Below are positions 39,001 through 45,000 of a stretch of 64,000 nucleotides of DNA, one piece after another. Within the stretch, counting starts at the first letter, position 1. Every line of letters starts with the position of its first letter. Origin of the DNA: Bdellovibrionota bacterium (GTDB taxonomy: Bacteria; Bdellovibrionota; UBA1018; CAIPTA01; JAALKR01). The DNA is taken from positions 416,001 to 480,000 of the forward strand of contig CBDBMJ010000003.1 of NCBI GenBank assembly GCA_965207455.1. The letters are read 5' to 3'. A program made the position numbers.

Positions 39001-42000
39001 GCGAGGTCCCTTGCCATCTTGCGTACGGATTCCACCTTTAACACGTTCCCCTGGGGTGAAATTATCTTCACATCTGGGTGCTGGCCGCGATCAGCCCGGT
39101 CCATTATTTTCTTTTGCTTCTCCTCTTCCTTGGAAAAAAGACTCGCAGCCAAGGAAAGTGCTGCCTTTCGCTTGCCCACACCATCGGGGCCAGAAAAAAT
39201 ATAAGCTTGATGAAGACGACCTTCCATGGTTTTTATAATAGAACTGTGGTCTAGGAAGTGTTTCATGTCACAATAAAAACTTTCTTTTCCTAAGGACCAC
39301 ACAAATTTCTTCATGTATTTTCTCAGGGCTTTGATTGGCATCCAGTTTATGACAACGCAAAGGCTCCTCTTGGGCTAACTTTTGATAACCCTTGCGCACG
39401 TCTTGGTGAAACTGTAAACGCTCCTGTTCCATACGATCAAGGGAACGGGAAGCTAGTCGCTTGAGCCCTAGAAGAGGGTCTAGGTCGAAGATAAACGTAA
39501 GATCTGGCTTTAGGTTGTCGGTGGCAATGGTATTTAATCGATCCACAAGCTCTTCACCTAGGTTTCGTGCTATTCCCTGGTAGACAAGGGAAGAGTCGGA
39601 AAAACGATCACACAACACGAGAGTTTTTGCCTGTAGGGCAGGTACAATAACGGCAGCCACATGTTGCGCTCTACTGGCTTCATATAAAAATAATTCTGCT
39701 AGCGCTACCATTCCCTTCATCTCCACACTTAACAGTAAGGAGCGAATTTTATCCGCATGGGGACCACCACCAGGTTCTCGGGTAACCAGAACACTGCGCC
39801 CTTGGCTTTTGTACAACTCTTCAAGCTTGCAAATTTGAGTGGTTTTTCCTGCGCCCTCGCCCCCCTCAAAACTAATAAAGGGTTCTGTTTTTTCTTTTTG
39901 CACTGTTTTTTGCACTGTCAAGGCCACCTCTAGGCATGGTATATATTGTATTCCCATGGTTGTACCACAGAAAAAAGACTGCGACGTATACGATATCACT
40001 ATCGTTGGTGCAGGCCCCACGGGCCTATTTGCCACCTTTTACGCTGGAATGCGAAAAATGAAAACCTGCATTATCGACAGCCTTCCACAAGTAGGAGGAC
40101 AACTAAATGCCCTATACCCAGAAAAATATATCTACGACATGCCCGGCTTCCCTGCCATACAATCCAAAAAACTAGTGGAGGAACTATGGGAACAAGCGCA
40201 GCTTGCCAAGCCGACCCTCCACCTTAATCAAAATGTGGTGGACATCGAGTCCTATCCCAATAAAGAAAATCGAGAGTATTTTATCCTCCATACGAAAACA
40301 CAGAAACAGGTTGCCTCCAAAACGGTACTCCTCGCACTGGGCATGGGAGCCTTTCATCCACGACCCCTCAAGGTCAGTGGCATGGAACCTTTTATGGGCA
40401 AGAACGTTCGCTATGCACCCAAGCCGCTGCATGAATATGCGGGAAAAAATGTGCTTATCGTGGGAGGAGGGGATTCTGCTTTGGACTGGACCTTGGCCCT
40501 AGGTAAAAAAGAAAACAAAAAACCTTGCTCTGCCCTCACTCTTATTCACCGGGGAGGACGATTCTCTGCCCATGAAGCTACCGTGGAGGCTGTTCACAAC
40601 ACCCCTGCCAACATATGGATGAACCACGAGTTAAAATCACTGGCCTCGGATAATACAAAACTAAAAGCCCACCTTAAGCAGAACCTCACAGGGGAAACAA
40701 AAGATATTATAGTGGATGAAGTTCTCATTTGCGTGGGCTATATTGCCCGACTTTCACTGGCAAAAGATATGGAAATTACCATGAATAAAAATTCCATCCA
40801 GGTGGATGATCGCATGGAAACAAATATCCCAGGTATCTTTTCCGCAGGAGATGTGGTGAACCATCCATCCAAGTTAAAACTGATCGCCACAGGAGTAGGA
40901 GAAGCAGCGATTGCAGTTAATTTAGCAAAAACCCTAGTCGATCCCAAAGCACGAGCTTTCCCCGGGCATAGCACTGATGTTTTAAAAAAAGAGAAATCAT
41001 AGTGATTTTTTTCTTTTAATTACCTCACTCCAATCAGCTATAGAAACTCACGGGATCGACTGGAAACTCTTTCAACACTCTCTATTTTTTAGTCAGTTCA
41101 GAAGCCCCCTCCTGTGTGGGTTTTGCATATGCAGGTCCCGAGATTAATGTGTAAATAACTGAAAATACCTTTATTGGTGTATTTTGGCACATCCCTTGCA
41201 TTAACAAATACATATGACAATTAAACTTAAAATTAGAAAGGAAATATACTAATGACCCTAGCACTGGCACTTGCCATAACCCTATCAACAACTGAATACT
41301 CATACGCAGTTGATAATGCTTGTCCTGTGATTGTCGGCGATGCGGCTTAGCTTGCTCTAAATATTTATGGACTTATTAATATCAAACTTTTTGTGTCCAA
41401 AGATTTATTTCTGCGATCGTGGTTGATGAATTCCATGGAGTACGAGCTTTTGATGGAGGTGGGAGCGGTCTACCTTTAAGTTGCGAGCCATGGAACTAAT
41501 ATTACCTAGAGATTTCTCATAGGCTTGTCGTAGGTACTTCTCCTCCATTTTGTTTTTTTCTTGGCGCATTTCTTTTATACTCGGAGTTTGGACTGCAAGG
41601 GAATCTAAGTGTAATGGATTAGAACATAGGGAGGATGGTGAGAGTAGTTTTTTATATACGGATTCTGGAATATCTTCTAAGCAAATAGGATTCTCTCCCG
41701 GTGAAAATACACTCATGCTTTCCAGCATGTTTCTTAATTCCCTAACATTTCCCGGCCAGGAGTATTGTTTCAATAGATATACTATATCTTCGCGAACTTG
41801 CCTGTGGGGCAGTATCGCTTTTATGAGTGCTTCCATGTCTCCCATCCTACTCCGAAGAGCAGGTACGTTTATGGTAAACCCATTAATACGAAAGAACAGA
41901 TCCATGGAAAAAATTCCTTGGTTTACTAAAGATTCAAGGGATACGTTGCTGGCGGAGAGAAGATGAAAATTTACAGGAACGGTTCTTTTACTTCCCAGGG

Positions 42001-45000
42001 GACGCACCTCCTTTGTTTCCAGTGCGCGAAGAAATTGTTTTTGTATATGCATGGGAAGGCTGGCTAGCTCATCTAAAAAAAGAGTTCCCCCTGAGGCCTG
42101 TTCCAACATACCGGGGAATCGCTGATCCGCTCCTGTAAATGCGCCTCGCTCATGACCAAAGAGAAAACTCTCAGTTAAATTGCTGGGAATACTGGCACAA
42201 TTAATAGCAATGAAAGGAGCGTTTCCATTTCCTTGGGCATGGATATTCTGAGCCACGAGTTCTTTTCCAGATCCCGTTTCTCCTTCAATCAGCACGGATA
42301 GCTTGCTACTACCCAGCCGTTGGATTTGCTTTTTTAACGCTATTATAGAAGGTGCGTTTCCAATAATAGTATATTTCTTTTGCTTTGTTATATTCATGTG
42401 TAATGGGACTATAACAAAAAACGCCATAATTTTCGACCCAATGCGAAAAATAAATTTTACAAAAGTTTTGTTTTTCGTTGTGTTGCGGGAAAGCCACAAC
42501 AACGGAGAGAAAAAATAAATAGAAAGTATTAAATATTAAACACTTAGAGGTGGCATTCTTTTTGCAGTATGTAGAAAGGAAGGAAGAAAATATGTATAGC
42601 AGCGTATACAGCACATTGAAAAGCATTTCTCAAACCGATTGCACCATCTTGCTTTCTGGAGAAACGGGAACGGGCAAAACCCACCTAGCTGAAGAAATTC
42701 ATCGAAATAGCCCTAGGAGAAATAAGCGTTTTGTTGCTATCAACTTAGCCACTCTCAATGAAAATCTAATGGAAAGTGAATTATTTGGACATGAGAGGGG
42801 AGCGTTCTCAGGTGCGTCCCACAGGCGTATGGGTAAGTTAGAGTTTGCCCAAGGAGGGACGGTTTTACTGGACGAAATTGGTGAATTGCCTTTAACCATG
42901 CAGGCCCGTCTTTTAGAAATACTAAGTAGCAAGACCGCTTGTCCTGTTGGTTCCAATCATTCCATCAATTTGGATATTCGTTTTATCGTTGCGACGAATA
43001 GAAAATTACCTGAGATGGTGCGCTTAAAAGAGTTCCGTGAGGATTTATTCTATAGAATTAATATCTTTGAATACAAGCTGGTGTCACTAGTTGAAAAAAA
43101 GGAAGAAATTCCTGAACTTATGAAAAAATTTATTGGTGAAAGAACCACGGAACCCATCACGCTTATGGATTGCTTTTTATCTAAAATAAATGCACACTCA
43201 TGGCCGGGAAATATTAGAGAATTGAAAAATGTTCTGGAGTATTCCCTAGCGGTACGGAAAGAAAACACATTATTTGCTAGCGATCTTCCTGCCTATTTCA
43301 TGGAAAGCACAGAACCCGATAGAAACTCTGTGAGTTTAGATACCTCATGCCTGCCCACAGACTTTTACACGGCAAAAGCTTCTTTTGAAAAGCTCTATAT
43401 AAAAGCCATGCTCAAGCAGTTTAATGGGAAAATTAATCAGACTGCGCGGGAAATCCAATTATCAAAAGTAACGCTTCTGTGTAAAATACGAAAATACGAT
43501 ATCAACCCGGAGTTCTACCGCGGGCATCAGGTTCCCCAGACTACCAGCAAAAGGGGGTAAAGGGGTTTTTTCATTTTTTTTTAGGAAGCTGTAATTTAAT
43601 TATTAAAAAAAATTAATTCTTTTGAGTTTTATCACTGAAAATTACCATGTAAACAAGGCTTAAAGCGTTTAAAAAGTGAAATAATATCCGGTTTTATCGG
43701 TCCAACTGTACAAGGTGTTGAAAACACTAGTATTGAAAAAACTAAAGGAAAGCACTCTTACAGCCGAAGGGAGATACAAGTGCAGAATAACTTTTGAGGA
43801 TAATATAGTGTTAACAAATTACGAAGGTGAGCAAATAGAGATAGCAGATAACCTACCCATGCTTCCAGTACGAGACATTGTTGTGTTTCCTTTCATGATA
43901 CTCCCACTATTCGTAGGTAGAGAGAGTTCCATAAAGGCGGTTGAAGAGGCATTGGCTTCCAAAGACAGGCTTATATTTTTGTCTTCTCAGAAGGATACAA
44001 AAGATGAGTTTCCGCAGCCGGGGAATATCTATACTACAGGTACTGTGGCTATTATCATGCGTATGAGAAAACTTCCAGATGGTAGAGTGAAGGTGCTTGC
44101 CCAAGGCATAACAAAGGCAAAAATTAAAGAGTTTAGCCAAACCGAACCGTTCTTGGAAGTATCCATTGAAAAGTCTGTAATTAAGGAAATTACTAGTGAG
44201 GAAATGGTAGAAGCCGAAGCAATTATGCGTAATGTGCGAGAGAATTTGGAGAAAATTATCTCCCTTGGCAAAATGCTTTCACCCGACATTTTAATGGTTT
44301 TAGATGATATCAAAGATCCGGGGCGATTAGCTGATCTTGTTTCCTCCAACCTTGGACTAAAAATAGAAGAAGCTCAGGCGCTATTGGAAAAAGAAGATGC
44401 ATTGGAACGAATTAGAAGCGTGAACGATATTTTAGTAAGAGAGATGGAAGTGCTTTCCATACAAGCTAAAATTCGATGCCAGGCTAAAGATGAAATGAGT
44501 AAATCCCAGAAAGAGTATTTCTTAAGAGAGCAGATTCGGGCAATAAAAACAGAGCTAGGGGATGAAGAGGGTAAGCAAGGAGAGTTTGAAGAACTTCGTC
44601 AGAAAACCTTAGCATGTAAAATGAGTCAAGAGGCAGAGCAAGAGACATTAAAGCAACTTTCTCGCCTGGAGCGTATGCACCCTGATTCCTCGGAAGCCTC
44701 CATTATTAGAACCTATTTGGAATGGATGGTGGATTTACCTTGGAGTAAAAGCACAGAAGATAATTTAGATCTAAAGCACGCTAAAGAGATATTGGATGAA
44801 GATCATTTTGATTTAGAAAAAATTAAAGAGCGTTGTTTAGAGTACTTAGCTGTTCGAAAGCTTAATAAGAACATGAAGGGACCAATACTTTGTTTTGTGG
44901 GCCCACCGGGTGTAGGAAAAACCAGCTTAGGGAAATCTATTGCTCGTGCACTGGATAGAAAATTCTATCGAATTTCTTTAGGTGGTGTAAAGGATGAAGC

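Follow-up and report, generated by a model that had tools for sequence, protein, structure and literature searches.

Loss of a five-gene chemosensory module from one syntenic site in a flagellated member of the Bdellovibrionota

The window analysed here (64,000 nucleotides) belongs to a 2.38 Mb genome, designated G000, assembled in three contigs. The region of interest comprises holB and tmk, a gene for a TrxB-like oxidoreductase, a short intergenic spacer, genes for two sigma-54 activators (sig54B and sig54A) and the Lon protease gene (Table 1). In G001, a member of the same family, a chemosensory cluster adjoins the trxB-like gene, tmk, holB and glpD; this synteny, described in the first-pass annotation, was recovered in our analysis. 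The cluster lay at the same place in all five sister-family genomes examined (G003, G004, G005, G007 and G010); the Lon gene served as the flank for fetching related loci. The TrxB-like gene is 47-56% identical to the gene adjoining cheA in G001 and in each of these five, and sig54A is 48-52% identical to the syntenic gene of G001 and the sister family, which likewise lacks a receiver (REC) domain. In the relatives, cheA directly abuts the trxB-like gene, and the place of the spacer is taken by about 5.6 kb encoding a CheC/CheX-like protein, CheY, a methyl-accepting protein (MCP), CheW and CheA. Since G001 and five of five sister-family loci all have the cluster at this site, their common ancestor with G000 had it and G000 lost it. 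The comparison thus supports a true loss, as first proposed, and sets the polarity as loss and not gain.

Table 1. Features of the locus and related genes. Positions count along the window except where a contig is named.
Feature	Position	Strand	Basis and remarks
holB (DNA polymerase III delta') and tmk	38250..40035	-	Pfam DNA_pol3_delta2, Thymidylate_kin; left flank, syntenic in G001 and five sister-family loci
TrxB-like pyridine-nucleotide disulphide oxidoreductase (g02181)	39839..41002	+	Pfam Pyr_redox_2, 1.3e-31
402-bp spacer at deletion junction	41003..41404		Synteny
Truncated copy of G000-specific seven-copy cassette	41150..41351	+	blastn of spacer against genome, promoter scan, comparison of copies
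Sigma-54 promoter-like site of the cassette copy	41185..41200		TGGCAC-N5-TTGCA
sig54B, sigma-54 activator	41405..42397	-	Pfam Sigma54_activat, 1.5e-56; AAA+ with GAFTGA, C-terminal HTH-like region
sig54A (g02184), REC-less sigma-54 activator with HTH_8	42550..43560	+	Pfam; conserved right-flank gene
Sigma-54 promoter-like site	42551..42566	+	Strict scan; just upstream of likely sig54A ATG (42593)
Lon protease	43715..46243	+	Pfam; conserved flank
Single-domain CheY-like receiver	48527..48907	+	Pfam Response_reg; acidic Mg2+ pocket gone (DD to TR)
ORF351, CheA-like protein	C1:369456-370511		After fliA; P3-P4-P5 fold by Foldseek

No remnant of any lost gene was detected at the site (all local HMM scores at or below 1 bit with filters off), and Rfam gave no match over positions 39500-44000. 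The junction is neither empty nor the clean deletion initially described: a truncated copy of a repeated cassette lies in it. In the cassette, a sigma-54 promoter-like site stands between a conserved upstream stretch and a conserved leader, followed by a signal-peptide ORF; its pattern occurs seven times in G000 and was absent when the other 10 genomes of the order were scanned. In the junction copy the ORF is reduced to 32 aa (41253-41351), and the family's signal peptide survives only in part. The strict promoter pattern used in the scan, TGGCA[CT]-N5-TTGC[AT], has 38 sites genome-wide. The module once lay between the trxB-like gene and the pair of activators, where the spacer now stands, and the cassette may have taken part in the deletion, for example through recombination between two copies with one left behind.

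A marker completeness of 94.7% counts against the reading of loss and, with an assembly in three contigs, could suggest an assembly or binning artefact, the che genes residing in unassembled DNA. We regard this as highly improbable. The site is contiguous inside a 504-kb contig, and a separate 36,023-nt contig of a public sequencing run (X1), possibly from G000's own source sample, is identical to positions 38000-46000 of the window; further contigs of this run match 41162-41246, within the junction cassette copy. Moreover, G001 to G005 each carry a single CheW/CheA/MCP set, namely this cluster, and have no second system that might hide elsewhere.

The whole of G000 was searched for receptor-kinase chemotaxis genes. 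In six-frame Pfam searches whose controls were detected each time, MCPsignal (PF00015) had no match at E<=1 and CheB_methylest none at all; H-kinase_dim reached 17.2 bits (cut-off 23) and CheR at best 10.8 bits. Nothing exceeded the cut-off for CheW (PF01584), the sole match (13.9 bits, E=0.05) falling within the CheA-like ORF351 discussed below. When the seven ORFs of the G001 cluster were used as tblastn queries, the MCP, CheW, CheA and a 336-aa ORF found no homologue in G000 (best E 0.26), and the cluster CheY was gone as well. Profile HMMs made specifically for the order, from the proteins of its cluster, detected no CheW, CheA or ORF337, and the MCP model gave one match at E=0.15. Together, these searches established that canonical MCP, CheW, CheA, CheR and CheB are absent from G000 in any frame, in agreement with the first-pass annotation, which had gone further in denying any CheA: the canonical protein is indeed missing, but a protein with a CheA-like P3-P4-P5 fold had escaped notice. 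The earlier finding of CheW throughout the order was also reproduced: each of the 10 genomes besides G000 has the cluster's low-scoring CheW and CheA pair.

The lost block consists of the five genes listed above. In the relatives, the cluster CheA has Hpt, HATPase_c and CheW domains, the residues of its N, G1, F and G2 boxes are invariant (alignment A4), and it scores 355 bits against the NCBIfam model CheA_Halo and 292 bits against that of E. coli CheA; these features mark it as a real, catalytically complete kinase. CheY is well conserved across families (56-62% identity). The first gene, noted earlier simply as a 337-aa ORF, is present as reported, and can now be assigned to the lost block as a protein with a predicted CheC/CheX/FliY-like fold. 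ORF337 matches no Pfam or NCBIfam family, and its profile found nothing relevant among PDB sequences; in its AlphaFold model (pLDDT 86), the N-terminal 200 or so residues resemble the phosphatases FliY, CheC and B. burgdorferi CheX. The best Foldseek matches were Thermotoga maritima FliY (4hyn, E 1e-9, target TM 0.73), the FliM middle domain, CheC (1xkr, 2f9z) and CheX (3hzh, 1xko). A D-x3-E-x2-N stretch (D114, E118, N121), invariant in alignment A3, sits on a long helix (residues 110-134) of the model. Glu and Asn on the long helix make up the active-site motif of the CheC family, for which E118 and N121 are candidate counterparts; the spacing to a downstream proline differs from the CheC-family consensus. 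Unlike these phosphatases, ORF337 has an extra C-terminal alpha/beta domain, and its phosphatase activity is putative.

The gene now bordering the spacer had been set aside as an unrelated sigma-54 activator. In the sister family, however, this gene is the cluster's ancestral neighbour: a syntenic orthologue, 41-47% identical, adjoins the cluster in four of the five loci, and a REC-AAA+ activator stands beside it in locus L168 too. Against these orthologues sig54B is the best match in G000, the next paralogue reaching 33-34%. The orthologues of G004, G005 and G007 (425-450 aa) consist of REC and AAA+ domains; their first 135 or so residues have no counterpart in sig54B, while alignment A1 shows no variation at GAFTGA, Walker A or Walker B. 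The sig54B reading frame can be followed back to a TTG at 42502 and homology begins near the ATG at 42397; Pfam found no Response_reg match in the protein, and the REC HMM scored at most 0.9 bit at the site. The protein has no HTH_8 match at E<=0.001; its C-terminus can be aligned to those of the orthologues, and one orthologue matches HTH_8 at 9e-6. Thus, sig54B descends from NtrC-type activators and lost its REC domain secondarily. As the receiver is gone and the AAA+ core intact, sig54B would no longer depend on phosphorylation. With an AAA+ core, a C-terminal DNA-binding region (putative in sig54B) and no receiver, sig54B and sig54A resemble PspF, and the NCBIfam pspF model scores about 195 bits, far under its cut-off; they differ from it in that sig54B became REC-less secondarily.

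The proximity of a REC-AAA+ activator raises the question of the output of the lost module, and steering of the flagellum by it is putative. In Myxococcus xanthus, the NtrC homologue CrdA is reported to be the output of the Che3 system (PMC3147164), and the sister-family cluster is similarly encoded beside a REC-AAA+ sigma-54 activator. The module could likewise have served an alternative cellular function with a transcriptional output; the order would then never have been chemotactic through this cluster, and G000 would have lost an input to gene regulation. CheA may indeed have been coupled to the REC domain of the activator: the G004 locus has no other histidine kinase, and G000 lost, together with the cluster, precisely the REC domain of this protein. 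Further points on this side are that the cluster loci of G001 and the five sister-family genomes contain no CheR or CheB gene, which like the adjacent activator counts against chemotaxis, and that Pfam scores for the module's CheW and CheA are low. We nevertheless consider a transcriptional role unlikely. The module has its own conserved CheY and a protein of CheC/CheX fold, a combination typical of fast CheY-phosphate signalling, whereas Che3 is reported to lack CheY and to possess CheB and CheR. It is the sole CheA/CheW/MCP set of G001 to G005, and FliM carries a CheY-docking motif in G001 and G003 to G005 (none was found in G002). In addition, a sig54B-type neighbour is wanting beside the cluster of G001, which lost sig54B and kept the cluster, and of G003, where the activators are not adjacent. 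The explanation we favour, and judge probable, is that the G000 lineage lost a self-contained five-gene CheY-phosphate module and kept its flagellar genes along with the AAA+ core of sig54B. Its nearest relatives possess no other receptor-kinase chemosensory system than this module.

As the first-pass annotation had stated, G000 has the genes of a flagellated cell: flgE, fliL, fliM, fliN, fliO, fliP, fliR, flhB, flhA, flhF, flhG and fliA were identified, together with four flagellins, one FlgL-like gene, FliG and MotB. With these genes intact and the module lost, the cell presumably swims without receptor-driven control of its motor; it might, as the first-pass annotation proposed, meet its target by chance collision and adhere through its adhesins. 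The N-terminus of FliM, MGQM-LSQNEIDALL, however, retains the CheY-docking peptide, so that some input may still reach the motor; the conservation of this peptide would be unexpected if nothing docks. Candidates for a pathway invisible to Pfam that feeds the motor through this peptide exist at two places. One is the end of the fliA operon, which encodes ORF351 and a 766-aa PAS-containing membrane protein. ORF351 falls below detection by Pfam and NCBIfam; its model (pLDDT just 74) matches the P3-P4-P5 fold of CheA in the E. coli core signalling unit (8c5v_A, E 1e-17) and T. maritima CheA-289 (1b3q_A, E 3e-15), a profile search against PDB retrieved CheA P4-P5 at E 0.004, and hhalign to the order's CheA gave a probability of 67% (E 5e-5). 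The other is an orphan canonical receiver (C1:1305824-1306210) in which DD, D, T, Y and K are all conserved and which lies two genes from a stand-alone Hpt protein; G000 also has two hybrid kinases with receiver domains. These two sets of genes were counted against the main reading.

Such a cryptic pathway nonetheless seems improbable, more so than a transcriptional output of the lost module. Unlike CheA, ORF351 lacks the P1 (Hpt) and P2 domains, its N box does not line up with His or Asn, and the F/G2 lid region falls within a gap of about 38 columns, a G1-like DDGxG being kept; judged from these motifs it is probably not a kinase. Its homologues occur in six of nine sister-family genomes, all with the full cluster, and ORF351 is therefore not a replacement for it. 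A search of 40 relatives yielded no clear orthologue of the orphan receiver (best match 43% identical), and the Hpt match is borderline, at 24.4 bits just under the Pfam cut-off of 24.6.

Loss of the module was not confined to G000. FliM is present and CheW absent in eight of 40 relatives of the class; among these eight, MCPsignal is without a match in five and reaches only sub-cut-off scores in two. The distribution of FliM without CheW implies at least four independent losses, and hence a recurring gene loss instead of a unique event. The novelty earlier claimed for a chemotaxis-null, motile member of the Bdellovibrionota is weakened accordingly. Two genomic surveys (PMC8067016, PMC12724312) regard the possession of chemotaxis genes as general across the phylum. 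The loss had also been called recent. G000 Lon is 74% identical to that of G001 and 70-72% to those of sister-family MAGs, so that the nearest genomes and metagenome contigs, sharing just 70-74% Lon identity, represent other genera; with no remnant above 1 bit, a remodelled activator and a cassette in the gap, a recent date finds no support. The close relatives are all uncultured MAGs, and the predatory lifestyle of G000 is assumed.

Legionella pneumophila and Brucella are flagellated and are not known to have chemotaxis genes. G000 resembles such bacteria, by its genes alone, in having a full flagellar set and no MCP, CheW or CheA. It differs from them in three respects: its loss maps to a single syntenic site, the REC domain of the adjoining activator was lost as well, and such losses have happened repeatedly within one class, in several lineages.

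A single-domain receiver encoded downstream of lon (Table 1) has CheY_Halo as its best NCBIfam match (56 bits, below cut-off). The synteny lon-cnnm-cnnm-receiver and a comparison of residues identify it as the degenerate, pseudo-receiver form in G000 of a CheY-like regulator that occurs class-wide in single copy. This regulator is kept intact in all eight class relatives that have FliM and no CheW.

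In G000, the genome under study (2.38 Mb in three contigs, C1 to C3; 94.7% complete by marker genes; the window is C3:416001-480000), chemotaxis genes were sought by six-frame Pfam searches of the whole sequence, with the controls being detected each time. MCPsignal (at E≤1) and CheB_methylest gave no match, CheR scored at best 10.8 bits, and H-kinase_dim, with 17.2 bits, stayed below its cut-off of 23. Nothing exceeded the cut-off for CheW, the single 13.9-bit match falling within ORF351, a CheA-like protein of 351 residues encoded after fliA. The sub-threshold H-kinase_dim match lies at C1:1342933-1343037 (locus L012), inside a 641-aa open frame. 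When seven ORFs from the cluster region of G001, a genome of the same family, were used as tblastn queries, the MCP, CheW, CheA and 336-aa ORF found no match in G000, and the matches of CheY were confined to ordinary receiver domains (20-34% identity). HMMs built from three to six of the order's own cluster proteins each likewise detected no CheW, no CheA and no 337-aa ORF genome-wide; the MCP model gave one match, at E=0.15.

The relatives reveal where the missing genes once lay. In G001, the interval between the homologues of the sigma-54 activator sig54A and of a trxB-like oxidoreductase contains, as the first-pass annotation had placed it, a cluster of five genes encoding a 336-aa ORF product, a 121-aa CheY, a 615-aa MCP with a HAMP domain, a 162-aa CheW and a 548-aa CheA with Hpt, HATPase_c and CheW domains. 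The same five genes directly adjoin trxB-like, tmk, holB and glpD in all five sister-family loci examined (G003, G004, G005, G007 and G010), and the low-scoring CheW and CheA pair of the cluster is present in all ten other genomes of the order, which comprises 11 species-level genomes. No further CheW, CheA or MCP was found in G001 to G005 beyond the cluster set, and no CheR or CheB gene within the cluster loci examined. Since the cluster lies at the same place in these relatives, the ancestor had it there and G000 lost it. The presumed true loss is thus borne out by the six-frame and HMM results together with the same-site cluster in G001 and the sister family, and the flagellar genes are intact. 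We conclude that the only receptor-kinase chemosensory module was really lost from the lineage of G000, and that this happened at a defined site. The loss had also been called recent. It is not datable: at the deletion site, the order-specific HMMs run with all filters off scored no remnant above 1 bit, and no relative closer to G000 emerged from a metagenome scan with sig54B or from scans with Lon, in which identity did not exceed 72%.

The site is flanked on the left by holB, tmk and a glpD-like gene; its other features are listed in the table. A 36,023-nt contig from the public sequencing run X1, which may be the source sample, matches window positions 38000-46000 without difference. X2, a run of a second study, contains short near-identical pieces on either side of the spacer between the trxB-like gene and sig54B (41003-41404), none of which bridges it. 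An Rfam search of the site gave no matches, and a promoter and terminator scan of 40900-42700 gave counts not above those of shuffled sequences. A sigma-54 promoter-like site, the second one at the locus, lies upstream of sig54A. Between sig54A and lon, the sister family carries a DksA-like gene and two uncharacterized ORFs (L161:8067-9952 in G004), all three missing from G000 and G001, where the spacers measure ~155 bp and ~105 bp, respectively.

Features of the deletion site and copies of the repeated cassette
Feature	Position	Strand	Remarks
trxB-like oxidoreductase	window 39839-41002	+	one of three genes in 39839-43560
Cassette copy at junction	window ~41150-41351		only a 32-aa ORF; blastn of spacer, copy comparison
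sig54B, sigma-54 activator	window 41405-42502	-	homology begins near ATG 42397
sig54A, second sigma-54 activator	window 42550-43560	+	
lon	window 43715-46243		downstream of sig54A
Cassette copy	C1:124445	+	
Cassette copy	C1:1101708	-	
Cassette copy	C3:70492	-	
Cassette copy	C3:36671	-	
Cassette copy	C3:35091	-	
Cassette copy	C2:1605	-	

The cluster CheA of the relatives carries all kinase motifs (alignment A4) and scores 355 and 292 bits with two NCBIfam CheA models, in both cases under the strict cut-offs. The 337-aa ORF matches no Pfam or NCBIfam model. In its AlphaFold model (pLDDT 86), the first ~200 residues resemble T. maritima FliY, FliM middle domains, CheC and CheX (Foldseek, E 1e-9 to 1e-5) and are followed by a C-terminal alpha/beta domain; a D-x3-E-x2-N stretch, invariant in alignment A3, is located on a long helix. 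By its modelled fold, the protein is the probable phosphatase of the module. By these components, the lost module thus amounts to a complete CheY-phosphate circuit.

Contrary to what had been claimed, the junction is not clean: the spacer holds a copy of a repeated element specific to G000. This cassette occurs seven times in the genome, two copies (C3:35091 and C3:36671) being near-identical tandem neighbours. It comprises a conserved stretch upstream, a sigma-54 promoter-like sequence, TGGCAC-N5-TTGCA (window 41185-41200 in the junction copy), a conserved leader and an ORF in which a conserved signal peptide, MKNR.NKNI...LAI.LP..GYS, is fused to unrelated mature parts of secreted proteins, 95-214 aa long. 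The cassette looks like a promoter-plus-export unit shuffled between genes. The promoter-like sequence in the spacer could have been a remnant of a che promoter. This reading was rejected on two grounds: no strict sigma-54 promoter occurs in the cheY-mcp intergenic regions of six relatives, and none of the ten other genomes of the order contains the element. The lone repeat copy at the junction would be the expected product of recombination between two copies, a possible route of the deletion.

Nor, contrary to the earlier description, is the activator next to the junction unrelated to the lost genes. A counterpart of sig54B lies between sig54A and the cluster, in the same orientation, in four of the five sister-family loci and in the MAG contig L168; at this position G003 has a FadL-like gene, a PAS histidine kinase and rmuC instead. 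The sister-family counterparts are 41-47% identical to sig54B, which is their best match among the eight sigma-54 activators of G000, the next paralogue reaching 33-34%. In G001 the locus lacks a copy, and the best match elsewhere in that genome (37%) is at paralogue level. The sister-family orthologues (425-450 aa) combine a receiver with an AAA+ domain, HTH_8 being detectable in one. The G000 protein keeps the AAA+ motifs invariant and lacks the receiver, of which no remnant was detected. The cluster kinase and the receiver of the neighbouring activator are thus both gone and, with no kinase other than the cluster CheA at the G004 locus, this hints that CheA fed the receiver of sig54B.

The statement that G000 has no CheA in any frame holds for canonical CheA and requires amendment for ORF351 (C1:369456-370511). 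This gene comes after fliA, at the end of a flagellar operon with flgE, fliL, fliM, fliN, fliO, fliP, fliR, flhB, flhA, flhF, flhG and fliA. No Pfam or NCBIfam model matches ORF351; a profile built from six of its homologues finds CheA P4-P5 chains (E 0.004), and the structural model (pLDDT 74) matches CheA P3-P4-P5 (E 1e-17). Aligned to the CheA profile of the order, ORF351 shows no conservation of the N box and a deletion of the lid that carries the F and G2 boxes; there is no Hpt domain. A role as a split CheA phosphorylating a stand-alone Hpt protein is unlikely because the ATP lid and the N box are missing. Weak homologues occur in six of nine sister-family genomes, in four of them on the fliM contig, at a distance of ~10-11 kb from that gene. 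The full cluster is present in all nine and, therefore, ORF351 is not a replacement. ORF351 and a 766-aa protein with a weak PAS match are the last two genes after fliA (C1:369456-372808, L057:14456-17808).

The loss of chemotaxis genes with retention of flagellar genes is not unique to G000, contrary to the original proposal. CheW is missing from eight of 40 class relatives (G017, G018, G024, G026, G029, G034, G035 and G037), all of which have FliM, as do 40 of the 41 genomes overall; FliM without CheW is thus seen in 9 of the 41 species-level genomes sampled from the class, G000 included. Five of the eight have no MCPsignal match, two have sub-cut-off matches only, and G026 has two MCPs. The CheW-less label requires eight changes on a FliM tree of 37 genomes, at least four being forced by well-supported branches, a count resting on a single-gene tree and assigned family labels. 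Two genomic surveys of Bdellovibrionota treat chemotaxis genes as general in the phylum, and chemotaxis even as a necessary trait (PMC8067016, PMC12724312); their supplementary tables may list genomes without such genes. Phrase searches of the literature found no reports of chemotaxis-less Bdellovibrio or predators, which is weak evidence of absence from print. Micavibrio does not lack chemotaxis genes (PMC3189940).

The FliM N-terminus, L[ST][QK]xE[IV]DAL, is kept in all 37 proteins compared (G000 and 36 relatives, FliM being unmatched in G002 and the set omitting G020, G023 and G025). It reads LSQNEIDALL in G000 and is found in all eight CheW-less relatives. By comparison with E. coli FliM, it is the presumed CheY-binding peptide. 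A single-domain CheY-like regulator is present in exactly one copy in 29 of 30 genomes outside the order (39-63% identity to the query); its best NCBIfam match is archaeal-type CheY (109 bits, under the cut-off). The eight CheW-less genomes all have it with every phospho-acceptor position intact (loci L233-L240), and therefore keep CheY without CheA. In the syntenic copies of G000 (window 48527-48907, after lon and two cnnm genes) and G001, the acidic pocket is gone, DD having changed to TR or TK; this decay is older than the divergence of the two genera. An orphan canonical single-domain receiver is also encoded in G000, separated by msrA from the gene of a 101-aa Hpt-like protein that scores 24.4 bits versus a cut-off of 24.6 (C1:1305824-1307065, L058:9824-11065). 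The Hpt-like protein has no clear orthologue in relatives. The receiver was rejected as a conserved CheY, since it too lacks a clear orthologue, the best match among 40 relatives being 43% identical.

A rather doubtful reading of these data is that the flagellar switch of the class listens to CheY without need of a receptor-CheA array. The docking peptide and the intact CheY of all eight CheW-less genomes would therefore reflect a recurrent, selected, CheA-independent route to the motor, and not decay. If so, G000 would stand at the extreme: its working CheY would have been deleted with the cluster when the class-wide CheY was already a pseudo-receiver, its docking peptide persisting nonetheless and the neighbouring NtrC-type activator turned receiver-less. 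This last change would hint at two outputs of the module conserved in the order, namely the motor and sigma-54 transcription. The FliM terminal branch of G000 measures 1.19 (median 0.17), and the identity of its FliM to the sister family is ~9 points below that of the G001 protein, FliN behaving likewise. Relaxed constraint specific to the switch proteins was rejected as the cause, as the 5-9 point excess recurs in TrxB-like, Tmk and GlpD and is missing from FliL. More testable leads are the seemingly partnerless FliM peptide, CheY without CheA in eight relatives and the trimmed activator receiver; jointly, they suggest a possible CheA-independent motor input and a possible transcriptional output of the order's module. 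With the loss pinned to one locus of known ancestral state, the G000 lineage is a natural test of how far gradient sensing benefits a small, fast swimmer.

Two further genes of the window may belong to the "adhesin repertoire" of the first-pass annotation: a 1072-aa ORF without Pfam match (33224-36442, minus strand) and an RHS-repeat/DUF6531 protein (49868-51511, minus strand), whose homologue in G001 is 37% identical.
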